Part shown: in pieces, positions 10,159 through 40,527 of the stretch | Numbering within the stretch: the first letter of the stretch is position 1 | Layout: every line of letters starts with the position of its first letter | Assembly (NCBI GenBank): GCA_003552565.1 | Contig: PUNB01000062.1 | Span: 1-40,606 of the forward strand | Direction of reading: 5' to 3' | Source of the DNA: Lentisphaerota bacterium | GTDB lineage: Bacteria > Verrucomicrobiota > Lentisphaeria > Oligosphaerales > PUNB01 | DNA length: 40,606 nucleotides | Notes under the pieces: model-generated | Told to the model about the DNA's origin: nothing | Seen by the model: only the letters and a program-made list of their open reading frames with translations | Databases searched by the model: none | Made by a program: the position numbers and the translations under genes

Positions 10159-10249
10159 AAAAAACCTGACATCCCCCATGTTTTCCGCTTGAGTTCTTTT
10201 CGACCTTCTGTAAAAATGGCGACTTTGTCATTTCTGTCGGATAAGCGGG

Positions 10250-10521
10250 TCGCTTAAGTGTATCCGAGCAAGGGCAGCGGCGAAGAAAGCGATTAAGTGT
10301 ATTTGAACGCCTCTCTCTAAACACTTCAGCATCCTCTTAACCCCACCCTTCGTCTCACCCTTACTTGGTTACGCTTAAACCACTATCTTTATCGGTCAGT
10401 GGGCGACAAACATTCGCGACAAGGTTCTAGACAAGGTTAGGCCTATCCCATGGGATGTTGTGAATTTGCCCTGACACCTGAAAACTGACACCTGAAAACA
10501 CGAATCTCACATAATCCCGAA
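10250..10521. repeat. Mosaic repeat cluster between the kinase 3' end and plsY
   Basis: It contains 'CGATTAAGTGTAT' modules, a half arm 'CGCGACAAGGTTCTAGACAAGGTT', the palindrome 'TCCCATGGGAT' (also at about 5068) and the tandem 'CTGACACCTGAAAA' x2. A truncated core tail 'TCTCACATAA' abuts the kinase stop. Confidence 0.8.
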
Positions 10522-24099: not shown

Positions 24100-24580
24100 A
24101 AGGTTAGCAAGAGCCTATGCGAAAAAATGTTTACGGTCTCTACATGCACGAAAAATAAAACTTGGTCGTGTCCGCCTTCAGGCGGCAGTTGCAGCGAGCT
24201 TCCGCCTTCGCCCGCGGGACTACGGCGTGACATGTCAGAGAGCGGGCGCAAGGCCTATGGAGATTCGGCGGATTCCGGGGGCTGAAGCCTCCGAATAGCT
24301 GCCGCCTGAAGGTGGAACTCCGGCATTTTGACGCGCTCATTAAGGTGAAGTTTCATACAAACCCGGCCGCCGGCGCGAAGCGCCGAACAATCCGGAGCTG
24401 GAAGCTCCAGCCACCATCTTAACCGCCGGCGCGAGGCGCTAGATATCACGAGGGAGCGACTTGATGCGGCATATAAAACCTTGTCTCGCACCTTGTCCCG
24501 TGTTTTTTTGATTTTGGAATCAGGTTCGGGACAAGGTTATATATTCGAAGTCTCACATAAGCCCGGCGGTTCTCAGCCGA
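24100..24580. repeat. Mosaic repeat cluster between convergent genes
   Basis: It contains a 'CTATGCGAAAAA...CACGAAAAATAAAACTT' module (compare 27030-27085) and paired CCGCCTTCAGGCGG hairpins. A core doublet split by the hairpin CCGGAGCTGGAAGCTCC (24350-24461) is the reverse complement of 39939-40053. An 'empty-site' 12-nt-periodic hairpin sits at 24477-24539, and a truncated core abuts the glycosylase stop. Confidence 0.9.
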
Positions 24581-32841: not shown

Positions 32842-33828
32842 ATGAATGAACCCCCGAAAAAACGCGTTTTGTCCGGTATCCAGCCTTCCGGAAGATTGCA
32901 TCTGGGCAATTATTTCGGCATGATTAAACCGGCCGTGGAACTCCAGAATCAAGCCGACAATCAATGCTTCTATTTTATTGCCGATTACCATGCCTTGACG
33001 CAGCTTCCCGACCCTGAACAATTGCGCAGCCACAGCCTGGAAGCGACTCTGGATCTGCTGGCCTGCGGTGTCGACCCGGAGAAAACGGTGCTTTTCCGCC
33101 AGTCCGACATTCCGGAAATCCCCCAGTTGACCTGGATACTGAGCTGTCTCGCCCCGCTCGGACTGCTGGAACGATGCCACAGCTATAAAGACAAAATCAG
33201 CCGCGGATTCTCACCCAACGCGGGACTATTCAATTACCCTGTCCTAATGGCGGCTGATATCCTCGCTTACAATTCTGATTTGGTGCCGGTCGGCAAAGAC
33301 CAGAAACAGCACTTGGAAGTTACCCGCGACCTGGCACAGAAATTTAACTGGCAGTATGGCGATGTACTGGTCGAACCGAAAGCACTGATCCGGGATGAAA
33401 CAGCGGTGGTGCCGGGAATAGACGGCCGGAAAATGTCTAAAAGCTATGATAATTTCATTGAATTATTTGGCCGCGATAAAACCATTCGAGAAAAAATCAT
33501 GCGAATACAAACCGACTCCACTCCCTTGGAAGCGCCGAAAGATCCAGACAAATGCAACGTGTTCGCTCTTTATAAACTGCTGGCTTCTCAAGAGGAAATG
33601 GAAGAAATGCGGGCGGCCTATCTGAAAGGGGGGCTGGGATATGGACATGCGAAAAAAGCGCTGCTGGAAAAATTCCAGGAATACTTCGCCGCTGCCCGCG
33701 AACGGCGTCAGGAACTGGCGCGAACTCCGGAAAAAATAGAAGAAGTCCTCCAGGAAGGCGCCAAAAAAGCCCGAAAAACCACCACAACGGTTCTGGAAAA
33801 AGTACTCAAAGCAATAGGTATACGATGA
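32842..33828 (+). CDS. trpS: Tryptophan--tRNA ligase
   Basis: 'GIQPSGRLHLGNY' (HIGH region), 'GKDQKQHLE' and 'KMSKS'. Confidence 0.93.
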   Translation: MNEPPKKRVLSGIQPSGRLHLGNYFGMIKPAVELQNQADNQCFYFIADYHALTQLPDPEQLRSHSLEATLDLLACGVDPEKTVLFRQSDIPEIPQLTWILSCLAPLGLLERCHSYKDKISRGFSPNAGLFNYPVLMAADILAYNSDLVPVGKDQKQHLEVTRDLAQKFNWQYGDVLVEPKALIRDETAVVPGIDGRKMSKSYDNFIELFGRDKTIREKIMRIQTDSTPLEAPKDPDKCNVFALYKLLASQEEMEEMRAAYLKGGLGYGHAKKALLEKFQEYFAAARERRQELARTPEKIEEVLQEGAKKARKTTTTVLEKVLKAIGIR

Positions 33829-33878
33829 TTCCCCGCCATGCACGCCAAAACAGACCGGAAAATTCCCGCAATTCGCCG

Positions 33879-34397
33879 ATGAACGCGGCGATCGGACTCG
33901 GCGCAAACCGTGAAAAACCTAAACAGACCATTTTAAAAGCGGTGGACAAACTGCGACAATCCGGATTCGCCGACATCCGCTTGTCATCGTTTTATCTGAC
34001 CGAACCAGAAGACTGCCGTCCCGGCACTCCGGACTTTGTCAACGCCGCCGTTGTCGGCCTATGGCCCGCCTCTCCGGAAGAACTGCTTGCCGCCTGCCGA
34101 AAAATAGAACGGGAACTAGGCCGACCGGCGGAGCATGCCAAAGACGAAGCCCGAACCATTGATTTAGATATCCTGATGTTCGATGACCAATATTTACATA
34201 CTGAATCCCTGCGGGTTCCGCACCCCTTGTTGACAGAGCGGCTTTTTGTTTTAACCCCTCTGTCGGAAATTGCCGGCGACTGGATAGTGGGGAAAAACGG
34301 CATAAAAAAGAGCGTCAAGGAGTGGAAGAAAACCCTGAAAACAAACAACCCGGATGCCGTCGGCAAAGTGCGTTTCCTCTGCACAGTTTGCGGCTAA
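33879..34397 (+). CDS. folK: 2-amino-4-hydroxy-6-hydroxymethyldihydropteridine diphosphokinase
   Basis: 'IGLGAN', 'RTIDLDIL' and 'L.VPHP.L.ER.FVL.PL.EI'. The ATG at 33879 was chosen because the homology starts there; the track ORF starts at 33825. Confidence 0.88.
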   Translation: MNAAIGLGANREKPKQTILKAVDKLRQSGFADIRLSSFYLTEPEDCRPGTPDFVNAAVVGLWPASPEELLAACRKIERELGRPAEHAKDEARTIDLDILMFDDQYLHTESLRVPHPLLTERLFVLTPLSEIAGDWIVGKNGIKKSVKEWKKTLKTNNPDAVGKVRFLCTVCG

Positions 34398-34523
34398 GCC
34401 GGAGCAAATCATTGCAGTATATAATATTATGAATAAATTTGATGGATTTTAGGGCTTTACAGGCAGGATTTTTATCAAAAATCAGCATTTTAACGACAAT
34501 CTAAAAAAATCCCGGAGATTGAC

Positions 34524-35285
34524 ATGCCCAGAGCATCTAGATATCTGAAAGAAGGGTACCTTTACCATCTGACGCATCGCTGTTCGGACGGTGAATTCTT
34601 TCTTCGCTTCGCCAGAGAACGGGACGCTTACCGTGAGTGGCTGCGTACAGGGGTTAATCGTTATAAGGTCTCAGTGCTAGGATATGCAATCACCTGTAAT
34701 CACACTCATGTGGTTGTCGATGCAACTGATCGGTCCGCTGTGGCCGACATGATGAAATTGGCTTCAGGAGTCGTCGCTCAATCCCTGAATCAGCGCAAAG
34801 GACATGAAGGCTCTGTGTGGGAACACCCTTACCAGTGTACTCGCATAGAGAGTGGTGCTCATCTTCTTAATTGTCTGCGTTACATCGACCTAAACATGGT
34901 CCGGGCAAGAAAGACGGAACACCCGGGTCAATGGCGCTGGTGCGGATATGACGAACTTGTCGGAAAACGCAGGCGCTACCGGATAATCGACCAAGAACGA
35001 TTGTTGGCGCTTGCAGGATTCGCTTCCAGTCGTGCTTTTGCCGAGTATTATGCGACCAGTGTCAGCGACAAACTGGAACGGCATCGCCAAGTACGGGAAC
35101 CTTATTGGACAGAAGCGGTTGCGGTTGGCAGTAAGGAGTTTGTCGAAGATGCCGGGGAAGCCGTTGCTCATCGGCGGCGGATGCATCATTATAAAATCGA
35201 CATTGAAGCTGAGGAGAACTTGTGGGTCGTTCGGGAATCATCTGTCCCTTACAGCTCTGCTTTTGGGGATAAATCAGCCTTCTAA
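34524..35285 (+). CDS. rayT: REP-associated tyrosine transposase-like protein (Y1 HUH transposase, IS200/IS605 TnpA superfamily)
   Basis: The 253-aa size is typical of RAYTs. The HUH motif is 'NHTHVVV' (H60-T-H62) and the catalytic Tyr context is 'LRYIDLNMVRA' (Y120). There is no tnpB partner and no IS terminal structure nearby. Confidence 0.75.
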   Translation: MPRASRYLKEGYLYHLTHRCSDGEFFLRFARERDAYREWLRTGVNRYKVSVLGYAITCNHTHVVVDATDRSAVADMMKLASGVVAQSLNQRKGHEGSVWEHPYQCTRIESGAHLLNCLRYIDLNMVRARKTEHPGQWRWCGYDELVGKRRRYRIIDQERLLALAGFASSRAFAEYYATSVSDKLERHRQVREPYWTEAVAVGSKEFVEDAGEAVAHRRRMHHYKIDIEAEENLWVVRESSVPYSSAFGDKSAF

Positions 35286-35526
35286 GCTATTACACGGCCT
35301 TCAGAAAAACTGTAAACATCTTTATAACAGTCACTTGCTATGGCTTATCCGCAAATGGTACAAACTTTTTCGCACGGGAGCATCGGTTAAGCTTACCGGG
35401 TGAGGGTGGCGGTTAAGAAAACGATTAAGCGTATTGCAGAGTAAAGCTTCAACCACACTTCGCCCCCCACGCCAAGCATTCAAACAAAAATTCAGAATCA
35501 ACGAACCTCGTGTTTGCCCTCGCCTT

Positions 35527-38500
35527 CTACTCCAGCAGAGTGCGCAGTTCATCCGCGCTCATTTTGCCAAGAGGCACAGAGGCCTCTGATTCAGTGTCGG
35601 CAACCAGGTTTTCAAACAGTTCAGACTTGTGTTTCTGCATTGCCAGAACTTTATCCTCAATTGTGTCGGCGGCCACCAAACGATAAGCGACAACACTTTT
35701 TGTTTGGCCAATTCGGTGAGTACGGTCAATAGCCTGATTTTCCACTGCCGGATTCCACCAGGGGTCGAAAATAAAAACATAATCAGCCTTGGTCAGGGTC
35801 AAACCGGTGCCTGCCGCTTTCAGACTGAGAAGAAAAATTCCGGCATCTTCACTTTGGTTGAAATCGCGCACGATTTCACTACGTTTCTCAACAGGAGTTG
35901 AGCCGGTGATCATCCAGGCAGGCAGTCCTTTCGCAGTTAAGTCGGCCTCGATCAGCTTCAACATGCGGACAAACTGGCTGAATACAAGGATCGAATGTCC
36001 CTCCGCCAAAAGTTCCTCAAGCATTTCCACAAGCGCATCGTGCTTGGCCGACTCCTCCACCTGATGCTTACGGTCGCGGATCAAAAGAGGATGACAGCAA
36101 GCCTGACGCAGCCGGGTCAAAAGAGCCAGCATTTCCACGGCTGTGTTGGTGTTTCTGGCCTGCTCCCGGGTTTCTTCCAGCAGCTGATCATAGAACTCTC
36201 TCTGCGACTCTGACATTTCCACGCGAATAACTTCGTCGATCCTTTCCGGCAATTCCCGAGCCACCATATCTTTGGTGCGCCGCAGCATTAAAGGCGCCAC
36301 CTGTCTGCCGAGCCGCGCCGCCCGCTCGGCGCTTTCGCCGGCTTTTAGGAACTTTTCACGAGATTCAAGATATTCAGGATTGAGAAAATCCATGATCGAC
36401 CACATGTCGAGAAGACGGTTCTCCAGCGGGGTGCCGGTAAGAGCCAGCCGCTGATCGGAACGCAGACGCTTGACCGCCTGACTGACCAAGGCTTCGGGAT
36501 TCTTGATCTGCTGCGCTTCATCCAGTATGACTATTTCAAAATGAATGTTCTCCAGCAGCCTGATGTCATTTCGAACCAAGGCGTAATTGGCCACCAGCAA
36601 ATCCCAATTCCCCTGCTGTAAAACTCCCTGCCGTCTTTCCGGGGGACCTGAGAAAACAGCGCAATTTATATCAGGAGCGAATTTGGCGCATTCATCCAGC
36701 CATACTGAAGAAACCGAGGCTGGACAAACTACCAGCGCCAAGGGTTTTTCCGACCGCCGCGATGACTCGGTGTCGCGGCGGCGCTCATCCAGAACCGCCT
36801 GCAGTAAAGCCAGCATCTGCAGAGTTTTCCCCAGCCCCATGTCATCGGCAAGGATGGCTCCGATCCGGTAACGAAGACGATCGGACAGGAACTCAAAACC
36901 TTCTTTCTGATAACCCCGCATCACTGGCTCCAGCCGCGGCGGCAGGGGCAACTCTTGCGGCTCCGGCTGGTTTATTATTTCTTCATGCAGCTTTCGATCC
37001 CTGGAGGCAATCTGATATTCCACTTCTTTTGTCTGCAGATTCAACAGCAGCTTACGAGTGTCCGGCCAGAACAACCGCAGCCTGCTTCCCCTGCCGAAAC
37101 CTGACTCGCTGATTATACGCCGAATATTTTTTACTCTTTCGGCATCAAAAGTAAGCCAGTAACCAGCTTTGCTGCGAGCCACCGGCGGAGAGCGGCCTAT
37201 GGCCGCGGAAACTTCACTGTCTTCCAAGCTGGCATCGCCAGAACGCCACGACAACCGTAAATCAATAAAAACTTTGCTTCGAGCAAAAGTGAGCATCGGC
37301 TGAAGAGGAAAGTCCGGAGCCAGCAGCGGAGCCAGCTCGGATGAATAATCCTTTTTAACAGCAGCGGGAAGATGATGCCAGAATTGCAGAAATCGGCTGA
37401 CGTTTTCCATTTGCCCTCGAAGACGATAAGAATCACTGTCGCCCACCCTTATCAAAGGCAGCCGGGAAATCTCTTCCTGCACACTGGAAAGAACCGGGGA
37501 TTCATAAATGGTCAACGCCAAACGCCCGTCCTTTAACTCCCTTAATCCGCCGGTCGGAACCTTGACGCCCGGATGCAGGAAAGCTTCTCCCATTCGGAAC
37601 GAAAGCAGCACGTCCCCGCCGTCAGCGCGAGCGGACACCTCAACCGGCGACTCGGTTTCCTTTTTCTTCTGAAGAATTTCACCCTCCAGTAAATCGAACC
37701 GGTTCTGAATAAGCGTGGGCAGATATTCCTCCACCTTGCCGAGAGGGATTCCCGGCGATTTGCGAGAGAAAAAATCAGTCAAAATTTTCCAAGAAACCGG
37801 CGGAGTAAAATCAAGAATTCTGCCGTCGATTATTACCTTTTTCTTTCCTTCCGAAAGCATCTTGAAGATTTCGTGAAAATGATAGCGAGTCCCGTCCGGC
37901 AGCATTACCAAAGCCGCCACTCGAATCATACCATTTTCAGCATACACTTCAAAATGCAGTGAGCATGTTTCCGCTTCCGCTCCAAGAGGCTTTTGCGAAT
38001 CCCGCTCAATAAACCTGCCCGGCACATGGCGCCAAAGCTCCTGCCACTTGGCAAAACGGGATTCGAAGATTTTCAGGATGTTCAAGTTCTGCTCAATGCT
38101 GAGGCGAAGTTCCGGAAACTCCTCCGGTTTTTGCATTGATTGCATATATCCATAGTAATAAGGATAAGAGTAAGGAAAAGAATGGCGGCGGGTCTTATTC
38201 CGGTACTCCTGGTACAGCCATTTTAAAAATTCCCGGTCCTCTTCCGGCCACTGTTCCCGCATAACACAGCCTTGCTGGAACCTGGATCCCAGTCGCTGGA
38301 TCTCCTGCATCTTCATAAGCCTTCGGTGTTCGTCTTCAACACTGTAAAAACGAATCGCCACTCTGCCCGGCTGATAATGAAAGTCAGCCTCCACTTCCAG
38401 ACGGCGATAAACCGGCTGATCTTCGTATACAATATTTGAAGAATATTGAACTGGGGAAGAAAATAAATCAGGCTGCGAATTTCCCCCATGCTCTTTTTGC

Positions 38501-38907
38501 CGCCAGCCGCTGTTTTCTCTCGGCGGAGTCTCGGCGGACTTCTTCGGCGGCGCACCGCTTTTTTCCAAGCCTGCCTTTCCGCCGGTTTCCCAGCCTTCCG
38601 CCCGGCATACCTGCTCAAAGAGAAAAGCGGCCAGCCAGCAATGCACACAGGCAGCATCAGGATAACCGCAGGTGCATGAACGGCGCCATGTCTCTCCATC
38701 AAAACTCCAGACCGGGCGCTGAGTTCCCAAGATAAGCTCCAGCGTTGTATCCGTCCACTCCAGACGACGGATATTTTCCCGCTGGCCGACCATTTTCGCC
38801 GTGTTGCGCACGCCGAGAGAAAACTGCCGGTCAATATCTTGCCTCACCGGCCATTGCTCCAGCCAGGGAGGCGGATTCTCTGGATAAGGAAAATTCGGTT
38901 TTTTCAT
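35527..38907 (-). CDS. SWIM zinc finger + SNF2-family helicase/ATPase
   Basis: N-terminal SWIM motif 'CTCGYPDAACVHC..' (CxC...CxH) and a ~550-aa middle region. The SNF2 motifs are 'DDMGLGKT', 'ILDEAQQIKN', 'LTGTPLENRL' and 'QAIDRTHRIGQ'. Confidence 0.88.
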   Translation of the reverse strand: MKKPNFPYPENPPPWLEQWPVRQDIDRQFSLGVRNTAKMVGQRENIRRLEWTDTTLELILGTQRPVWSFDGETWRRSCTCGYPDAACVHCWLAAFLFEQVCRAEGWETGGKAGLEKSGAPPKKSAETPPRENSGWRQKEHGGNSQPDLFSSPVQYSSNIVYEDQPVYRRLEVEADFHYQPGRVAIRFYSVEDEHRRLMKMQEIQRLGSRFQQGCVMREQWPEEDREFLKWLYQEYRNKTRRHSFPYSYPYYYGYMQSMQKPEEFPELRLSIEQNLNILKIFESRFAKWQELWRHVPGRFIERDSQKPLGAEAETCSLHFEVYAENGMIRVAALVMLPDGTRYHFHEIFKMLSEGKKKVIIDGRILDFTPPVSWKILTDFFSRKSPGIPLGKVEEYLPTLIQNRFDLLEGEILQKKKETESPVEVSARADGGDVLLSFRMGEAFLHPGVKVPTGGLRELKDGRLALTIYESPVLSSVQEEISRLPLIRVGDSDSYRLRGQMENVSRFLQFWHHLPAAVKKDYSSELAPLLAPDFPLQPMLTFARSKVFIDLRLSWRSGDASLEDSEVSAAIGRSPPVARSKAGYWLTFDAERVKNIRRIISESGFGRGSRLRLFWPDTRKLLLNLQTKEVEYQIASRDRKLHEEIINQPEPQELPLPPRLEPVMRGYQKEGFEFLSDRLRYRIGAILADDMGLGKTLQMLALLQAVLDERRRDTESSRRSEKPLALVVCPASVSSVWLDECAKFAPDINCAVFSGPPERRQGVLQQGNWDLLVANYALVRNDIRLLENIHFEIVILDEAQQIKNPEALVSQAVKRLRSDQRLALTGTPLENRLLDMWSIMDFLNPEYLESREKFLKAGESAERAARLGRQVAPLMLRRTKDMVARELPERIDEVIRVEMSESQREFYDQLLEETREQARNTNTAVEMLALLTRLRQACCHPLLIRDRKHQVEESAKHDALVEMLEELLAEGHSILVFSQFVRMLKLIEADLTAKGLPAWMITGSTPVEKRSEIVRDFNQSEDAGIFLLSLKAAGTGLTLTKADYVFIFDPWWNPAVENQAIDRTHRIGQTKSVVAYRLVAADTIEDKVLAMQKHKSELFENLVADTESEASVPLGKMSADELRTLLE

Positions 38908-39801: not shown

Positions 39802-40527
39802 GCTTATGTGAGACTTCGTCTCGGTGATCGGTTATCAGTCATCCGAGTGCCGTACTCGTACACGTACTCGTACACTCAAATCTCCGGGGTCAGAAATAAT
39901 GACGATTAGCGTATACGAGTACGTGTAAAAGTACGTAGAGTCTCTCCCTCGGGGTATCCGGCGCTTCGCTCCGGCGGTCGAGATGGTGGCCGGAGCTTCC
40001 AGCTCCGGATTGTCAGGCGCATCGCGCCGGCGGCCGGGCTTATGTGAGACTTCGCGTTGTTAACCTTGTCCCGAATCCGCCTCAGGCGGATCACAAACCT
40101 GATTCCAAAGCCTAAAAACACTAGACAAGGTGCGAGACAAGGTGCGAGACAAGGTTTATTATGCCGCAACAGTCTCTACCTCAGGGTATCAGGCGCCTCG
40201 CGCCGGCGGTCGGGCTTATGTGAAACACGGTTCGTCGTTGTTCGTTTTATATCAGTGTTAATCAGTGTCCATCCGTGGTTCTAATAAAAAAATTGCGGCG
40301 TGAATGAGGACAGATTTAAGTGTACGAGTACGTGTACGAGTACGGGAAATGCTGCGGTATCGTTATACGGTTTCGTACTCGTACACCTACTCGTACACGC
40401 AAATCTTTCGTATCCTGCCTGCTGCCCCGAGGGAGAGACTTGTTGAATGTGTCACCTGAACACTGAAACCTGAAACCGCGAAGTCTCACATAAGCCCTAC
40501 CGCCGGCGCGCGGCGCCTGATACCCCG
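39802..40527. repeat. Densest mosaic repeat cluster (~725 bp, no credible CDS)
   Basis: Module order is a core tail, a GTACGAGTAC hairpin, a core doublet with a CCGGAGCTTCCAGCTCCGG insert (39939-40053) and a 12-nt-periodic hairpin (40063-40156). Then follow a core (about 40165-40222), a CGACGAACG module, a TCCGTGGTTCTAATAAAAAAA module, a GTGTACGAGTAC hairpin (40320-40398), a CACCTGAACACTGAAACC module and a core (40473-40527). Confidence 0.9.

Follow-up and report, generated by a model that had tools for sequence, protein, structure and literature searches.

A RAYT-like Y1 transposase gene in a Lentisphaerota genome is probably part of a TIRtron-type unit with its own short hairpin ends

The window (the whole 40,606-nt stretch of DNA that was analyzed) carries a real open reading frame at 34524–35285 on the plus strand, which encodes a Y1/HUH transposase of 253 aa. 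Upstream of it lie the genes for TrpS (32842–33828) and, as the immediate neighbor, HPPK/FolK (33825–34397), and downstream, in convergent orientation, the gene for an SNF2 helicase of 1126 aa (35527–38907). With these neighbors there is no tnpB at the locus, in line with the earlier note on this DNA, which had also called the frame correctly. The 5′ flank of the transposase gene is AT-rich (33% GC versus 52% across the window) and no high-copy repeat was found in it, as that note had described. Its description of the flank as free of repeats did not hold up, since the flank contains a conserved leader with diverged copies on two other contigs of the assembly, C109 and C148. On the 3′ side, a truncated plus-strand copy of a GGTTAAG-family mosaic module (35380–35435) occupies the spacer between the element described below and the 3′ end of the SNF2 gene. 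This module has at least 13–16 copies in the genome, one of them at about 10201–10400 of the window, so that the previously reported sharing of a 3′-flank module with the region around 10250–10350 was confirmed. The assembly comprises 2.09 Mb in 275 contigs and is 86% complete; as contigs end at repeats and the genome is incomplete, the repeat counts and the census of Y1 genes given here are lower bounds.

The protein matches the Pfam profile Y1_Tnp (PF01797) with 31 bits (cut-off 23) over residues 14–122, and the profile search proposed as a check in the earlier note thus places it inside the Y1/HUH family. Both motifs named there are present: NHTHVVV at residues 59–65, with the HUH histidines H60 and H62, and RYIDLNMVRA at residues 119–128, with the catalytic Tyr120 within YIDLNM. 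Against the NCBIfam model REP_Tyr_transpos (NF047646) the protein scored 54.8 bits, which does not reach the curated equivalog cut-off of 80, and against the IS200 model NF033573 it scored 16.9 bits (cut-off 55). A sequence search of the PDB gave no more than marginal hits, to ISDra2 TnpA (E 0.1–0.4), and a fold search was therefore needed. The best fold match of an AlphaFold2 model of the 253-aa protein (pLDDT 84.8) was 4ER8, the E. coli REP-associated transposase with a REP hairpin (E 5e-4, target-normalized TM-score 0.65), in an alignment of about 154 columns that spans nearly all of the 165-residue E. coli protein; the TnpA proteins of IS608 and ISDra2 came next. Taken together, the profile above its cut-off, the higher score with the RAYT than with the IS200 model and the fold place the gene product among the Y1/HUH transposases, on the RAYT side of the superfamily, as had been proposed. 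The last ∼115 residues make up a conserved C-terminal domain, for which we found neither a Pfam match nor an HTH family (Bac_DnaA_C, HTH_23, HTH_28) at E up to 1; a separate AlphaFold2 model of this domain (pLDDT 69) gave no PDB match at E below 1.

A public protein search returned 567 relatives. Most of the 120 matches listed are 245–256 aa long, and the one with an organism name among them comes from a Kiritimatiellia MAG. An alignment of 36 homologues (49–78% identity) contains 45 invariant columns, including H60, H62, Y120, N124 and M125, and the Tyr motif of the aligned family reads Y[IV]DLNM (Y---NM). The full length of 253 aa is kept across PVC lineages. Compared with the closest orthologue, which is 78% identical, dN/dS is 0.11; judged by this ratio, purifying selection on the transposase is strong, and the protein is intact.

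The earlier note had seen no obvious IS ends, but a 21-nt inverted repeat brackets the gene, and the same pair is found at the same distances in relatives. The left terminal inverted repeat, TTTGCGGCTAAGCCGGAGCAA, lies at 34387–34407 on the plus strand and includes a 13-nt hairpin, GCGGC-TAA-GCCGG (34390–34402). The right one lies at 35335–35355 and reads TTTGCGGATAAGCCATAGCAA on the minus strand; the two repeats match at 18 of the 22 positions compared. In the right repeat the hairpin (35340–35352) is eroded, with two Watson–Crick pairs and one G–T pair kept out of five, and its loop center is 61 nt past the stop codon. From the left end to the start codon runs an AT-rich leader of 116 nt (34408–34523, plus strand), which contains a block, GGGCTTTACAGGCAGGATTTTTATCAAAAATCAGCATTTTAACGAC (34452–34497), that is also conserved at two orthologue loci, L029 and L034, and in the copies without a gene on contigs C109 and C148. 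A simple scan for the sigma-70 consensus found none in 34300–35600, and no Rfam family was found anywhere in the window. From this arrangement, 34387–35355 is likely to be one unit of ∼970 bp, made up of the gene and its leader between two inverted repeats. The GGTTAAG module, 25 nt beyond the right inverted repeat, is a neighbor of this unit and lies outside it.

To compare the ends between genomes, 49 related loci were collected from PVC-group MAGs and a few others labelled Planctomycetota, Acidobacteria or Fibrobacterota, and for 28 full-length genes (including the one in the window) each left end was paired with the reverse complement of its own right end. In 21 of these 28 loci the loop center of the right hairpin lay between +60 and +62, and in 23 of them that of the left hairpin lay 126–136 nt ahead of the ATG; in most relatives the two hairpins are found at about −128 and +61. 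At orthologue loci in other assemblies, the distances seen were ∼133 nt from the hairpin to the ATG and ∼55 nt from the stop codon to the inverted copy. An ungapped alignment of 47 ends had its six-pair stem paired in 81% of cells versus 64% after shuffling, a value that none of 500 shuffles reached, with the reservation that this percentage is biased toward structure, as the register of the alignment was picked partly by hairpin score. Three observations are independent of the choice of register: the right hairpin stays at +61, left and right ends match each other, and the hairpin types agree with the protein tree. Double changes in the stem were frequent among the 47 ends: pair 7–17 is CG in 17, AU in 12 and UA in 12 ends, and pair 8–16 is GC in 35 and CG in 12. 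Two to three nt inside the stem lies a YAA triplet, with an A that is ≥90% conserved in the alignment of ends, giving a family consensus of a 13-nt hairpin, GYGGN-NNN-NCCRC, followed by NN-YAA. Across the relatives, the type of hairpin goes with the protein clade. As far as these alignments can tell, the end stems covary and change along with the protein clades.

Neighboring genes were different in every genome examined, and conserved synteny, looked for as a sign of vertical inheritance, was rejected, as the neighbors differ at all loci examined. For the pair L048 and L051, whose proteins are 95% identical, DNA similarity begins and ends a few bases outside both hairpins, which marks the boundaries of the unit. 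Inverted repeats thus travel with a RAYT-like Y1 gene, as in TIRtrons, at most of the 28 loci as well as in this pair. Relatives also contain relics that consist of the left hairpin and the first 30–50 codons only, a copy with an internal deletion (L080) and local tandem duplications. The present genome holds one full copy of the transposase family, along with a diverged solo left end with leader (C109:4291–4400), a short remnant (C231:11279) and an inverted doublet of two gene-less copies of the left end plus leader, ∼290 bp in all (C148:1944–2260). This doublet looks like a REPIN or MITE made from one end only. Copies within one relative genome are few and diverged (35–45% identical), and the distribution within the order is patchy: G001 and G002, although from the same family, have only distant matches, at about 37% identity.

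The element is shorter than 1 kb, has one Y1 gene but no tnpB and carries small subterminal hairpins, and it could on these grounds be taken for an insertion sequence of the IS200 type (IS200 group of the IS200/IS605 family) with a long transposase; the TnpA proteins of IS608 and ISDra2 are indeed the next-best structural matches. The ends of IS200/IS605 elements are recognized on one strand, as known from IS608, whereas the end hairpins here are inverted in orientation. The copy-number pattern differs as well, with one copy here and no near-identical multiple copies, and the score of 16.9 bits with NF033573 falls far below the cut-off of 55. Furthermore, the motif Y---NM is near the Y---NP of class 2 and not the Y---Q of the IS200/IS605 TnpA proteins, subclass 1.1 (Table 1, PMC6006769). 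On the grounds of motif, profile score and end orientation we rejected an IS200-type element, which we regard as highly improbable.

The single copy in this genome, the few diverged copies in relatives and the strong purifying selection also fit a domesticated gene. The transposase would then be an immobile host protein and the hairpins its binding or regulatory sites, for example for autoregulation or for local processing of single-stranded DNA. One full copy with a dN/dS of 0.11, a length of 253 aa that is conserved throughout PVC lineages and a hairpin that is amplified nowhere would all be expected of such a gene, and it has been argued that non-IS TnpA-Y1 subclasses may have cellular roles (Quentin et al. 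2018, PMC6006769). However, the context differs in each genome while DNA similarity stops at the hairpins, and it is common to find broken copies, solo ends, local tandem duplications and an internal deletion, which is the signature of a mobile element. The patchy occurrence within the order, where G001 and G002 have only matches of about 37% identity, likewise argues against a resident host gene. We consider domestication without mobility unlikely and prefer a TIRtron-type unit.

The transposase gene had been put forward as the candidate mobilizer of the mosaic repeats in the window. It is the only Y1 gene in these repeat-dense 40 kb, of which about 10% is covered by 14-mers present at least four times. 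Such 14-mers make up 4.8% of the whole assembly, a share that calls for some mobilizer. Acting in trans, the enzyme would then be the REP-associated transposase of this genome and would serve the abundant mosaic modules, either some of them or the whole set, with the GGTTAAG copy 3′ of the gene among its targets; its RAYT-like fold and best profile and the presence of this module 25 nt past the right end would be consistent with such a role. The GGTTAAG module, however, is found on one side of the gene only and outside the conserved inverted repeats, and no abundant repeat occurs on both sides of the gene. The abundant hairpins CCGCC-TCA-GGCGG and CCGGCGC-TTC-GCGCCGG of the mosaics are unlike its own GYGG...CCRC hairpin with YAA, and its score remains below the curated RAYT cut-off. 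Its own hairpin is present at low copy: the genome has 10 sites that match it with at most one mismatch, and a single occurrence of the 20-nt left end. Counts of exact matches to the hairpin GCGGCTWAGCCGC across 41 genomes were at the control (chance) level, with no amplification in the 40 relatives.

Nor is the gene the solitary single-copy RAYT it had been thought to be: although its family has one full copy here, a search of the contigs of this 86%-complete assembly gave five Y1_Tnp matches, the window gene and four others. C197:140–1310 encodes a Y1 protein of 311 aa with C-terminal HTH_23/HTH_28 domains and is associated with TTACCCATTTCGCGCATGGCC... hairpins (12 copies in the genome); the hairpin TTACCCATTTCGCGCATGGCCTGATTTGGGTAA is found in three copies upstream and two inverted copies downstream of the gene. 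This locus combines domains typical of TnpA-Y1 subclass 2.1 with the textbook arrangement of a REPtron/TIRtron. At C121:600–1245, the gene for a RAYT-like protein of 161 aa is preceded by three GCGTCCCCGCGAGCCATTGG units and followed by one in inverted orientation; 3 copies of this repeat were found in the genome. The gene at C33:6000–7330 is IS200-like, has a long N-terminal extension and is flanked by direct repeats of ∼50 and ∼100 nt (30 copies in the genome). At C138:1–3498, on the minus strand, a RAYT-like Y1 domain lies in frame within a 1166-aa open reading frame that resembles N6-adenine methyltransferases (motif DPCCGSGHFLV), and translated copies (‘VAGASSSG’, ‘DAPATF’) of the palindrome CCGGAGCTGGAAGCTCCGG, present 46 times in the genome, bracket the domain. 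The same palindrome is also a module of the mosaics in the window, at 24392 and 39990. We had considered that a RAYT with its REPs was inserted in a methyltransferase gene, an explanation weakened by the recurrence of Y1 domains within open frames of 1000–1700 aa in at least six relatives (G004, G007, G008, G021, G026, G030); the C138 gene looks like a conserved Y1/methyltransferase fusion.

The earlier note had wondered at one RAYT facing at least 10 module families. With four other Y1 genes, each with flanking repeats of its own, that is at least four RAYT-like genes plus one IS200-like gene in the genome, and with a private hairpin for the window gene, this puzzle dissolves. The most abundant modules are the GAGACAAGGTGC pair (251 copies), CCGCCTCAGGCGGATC (189 copies) and the CCGGCGC hairpin (135 copies), and no Y1 gene of this assembly adjoins any of the three.

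Co-occurrence between genomes, which had been suggested as a check, also speaks against a link between the window gene and the 12-mer arrays. Across 40 relatives, the GAGACAAGGTGC pair was counted 27 times in G007, 8 times in G008, 5 times in G020 and not at all in G013, with none for the reversed control. G013, without 12-mer arrays, holds the closest orthologue among these relatives (64% identical), whereas the array-rich G007 has a single short match to the transposase family, of about 45 residues and with an internal stop. The GAGACAAGGTGC pair and the transposase family thus did not co-occur in this comparison, which covers a handful of incomplete MAGs and one module of many. Y1 genes as a whole are present in 33 of the 41 genomes, a frequency at which their census cannot separate genomes with 12-mer arrays from those without. 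Considering all of this together, a REP-associated transposase acting in trans on the mosaics is quite unlikely as the nature of this gene. The window transposase is probably not the agent that spreads the mosaic repeats; if Y1 enzymes serve these modules at all, the other four Y1 genes or genes missing from the assembly are more plausible candidates.

In the window, the tandem 12-mer GAGACAAGGTGC is seen at 2355–2387, at 40122–40154 and at eight other sites. It is not specific to this species, as G007, G008 and G020 come from different families within the same order; its pairs in these genomes indicate a motif that is either old or spreading between lineages.

We compared the preferred reading, a TIRtron-type unit, with published systems. 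The TIRYT/TIRtron class was described by Di Nocera, De Gregorio and Rocco (2013, BMC Genomics 14:522, PMC3733652) as a RAYT-like gene between terminal inverted repeats; in the sections of that paper on which we draw, the repeats lie at similar distances from the gene, some are self-complementary and often they belong to no repeat family of the genome. Within the scope of those sections, the present element is alike in having a RAYT-like Y1 gene between terminal inverted repeats and no genome-wide REP family, in a repeat-to-CDS distance that is similar across species, in repeats of which some are self-complementary, in repeat families that are small or absent in many hosts and in the frequent presence of several different tyrosine transposases per genome. 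It differs in that the GGGGWSAS of many TIRs published there is absent and a 13-nt hairpin with NN-YAA is found instead, in its hosts, which are PVC-group MAGs, and in the tandem partial duplications at many ends, of which the same sections make no mention.

According to Quentin et al. [quoted passage not shown] 2017, PMC5581495). Proteins of subclass 2.1 have a median length of 238 aa, an NHVH or NH[YF]H motif, W[EQ], YIELNP or Y[IV]HLNP and a C-terminal HTH; neither REPs nor secondary structures were found near their genes (PMC6006769). The family described here resembles them in length class (253 aa), in its NHVH-type HuH motif, W[EQ] motif and C-terminal extension, and in the low number of diverged copies per genome, the patchy distribution and the lack of a high-copy REP. 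When set against Table 1 of PMC6006769, NH[TV]H and WE fit, and Y[IV]DLNM is closest to the YVDLNP of subclass 2.3. However, the signature of all class 2 TnpA-Y1 proteins is Y---NP (PMC6006769), as opposed to Y---NM with an invariant Met in this family; no HTH was found in the C-terminal part, while the C197 paralogue has HTH_23/HTH_28; and conserved, covarying hairpins adjoin the gene. Compared by published motifs and descriptions, the family lies near subclass 2.1/RAYT group 1.

The E. coli TnpA-REP/RAYT (4ER8; subclass 2.2) is the best structural match, shares the HUH motif with a single catalytic Tyr and is likewise encoded between hairpins in inverted orientation. Unlike the window gene, whose hairpin is not amplified and which lacks a flanking REP/REPIN family abundant in the genome, the E. 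coli enzyme of 165 aa comes with hundreds of REP copies. The protein studied here also has an extra C-terminal domain, and its 54.8 bits with the RAYT model compare with a cut-off of 80. Three features set the family apart from these published classes: the invariant Y---NM, the non-HTH C-terminal domain and the conserved, covarying hairpins in the terminal repeats. Published surveys of the TIRYT/group-1 class found no conserved secondary structures (PMC6006769), and the present family offers a clean comparative case for this class, with hairpins whose distance from the gene is fixed, whose stems covary and whose type shifts together with the protein among PVC-group bacteria.

Overall, 34387–35355 is probably a TIRtron-type unit, with a RAYT-like Y1 gene, a leader of 116 nt and short inverted repeats that contain hairpins of 4–5 bp. 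By inference from its relatives, the transposase would bind the hairpins of its own ends as single-stranded DNA and would cut near the conserved YAA, 2–3 nt inside each stem, using Tyr120 and a metal held by the HUH histidines. The unit could thereby be moved or copied at low frequency, as has been proposed for TIRYTs and group-1 RAYTs. The cognate DNA of the enzyme would be the low-copy end hairpin and not the abundant mosaic modules, though it may also act in trans on other hairpins, which is compatible with the sequence analysis. Since its right-end hairpin is eroded, this particular copy may have lost its mobility, despite an intact protein under purifying selection. Recognition of the substrate is directly testable with short oligonucleotides.

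A further feature of the family is that its ends are often stuttered. Tandem repetition of the outer flank plus the left hairpin arm, in two or three copies with units of mostly 12–14 nt, occurs at 13 of 46 ends, compared with 0 of 46 in the inner 80 nt that served as control. Such stutters were seen at L031, L032, L034, L039, L040, L048, L051, L053, L066 and L079, and they are unlike between L048 and L051 despite proteins that are 95% identical. One speculative explanation, which we rate as doubtful, is that the enzyme itself left them behind when it cut and rejoined DNA beside the hairpin or inside it. If this were true, the same Y1 chemistry, carried out by this enzyme or a paralogue, might also give rise to the 12-nt periodic arrays (such as GAGACAAGGTGC) of the mosaics, a route to generating repeats that has not been described for RAYTs. 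The labile, stuttered ends might bear on the origin of the periodic mosaic repeats of this lineage.

At the left boundary of the unit, the TAA loop of the hairpin (34390–34402) doubles as the stop codon of the HPPK/folK gene. The closest relative with folK is G001, where FolK is 56% identical and the gene downstream of folK is a different one; the final seven FolK residues encoded in the window have no counterpart in this orthologue. The native end of folK seems to have been replaced by the element.
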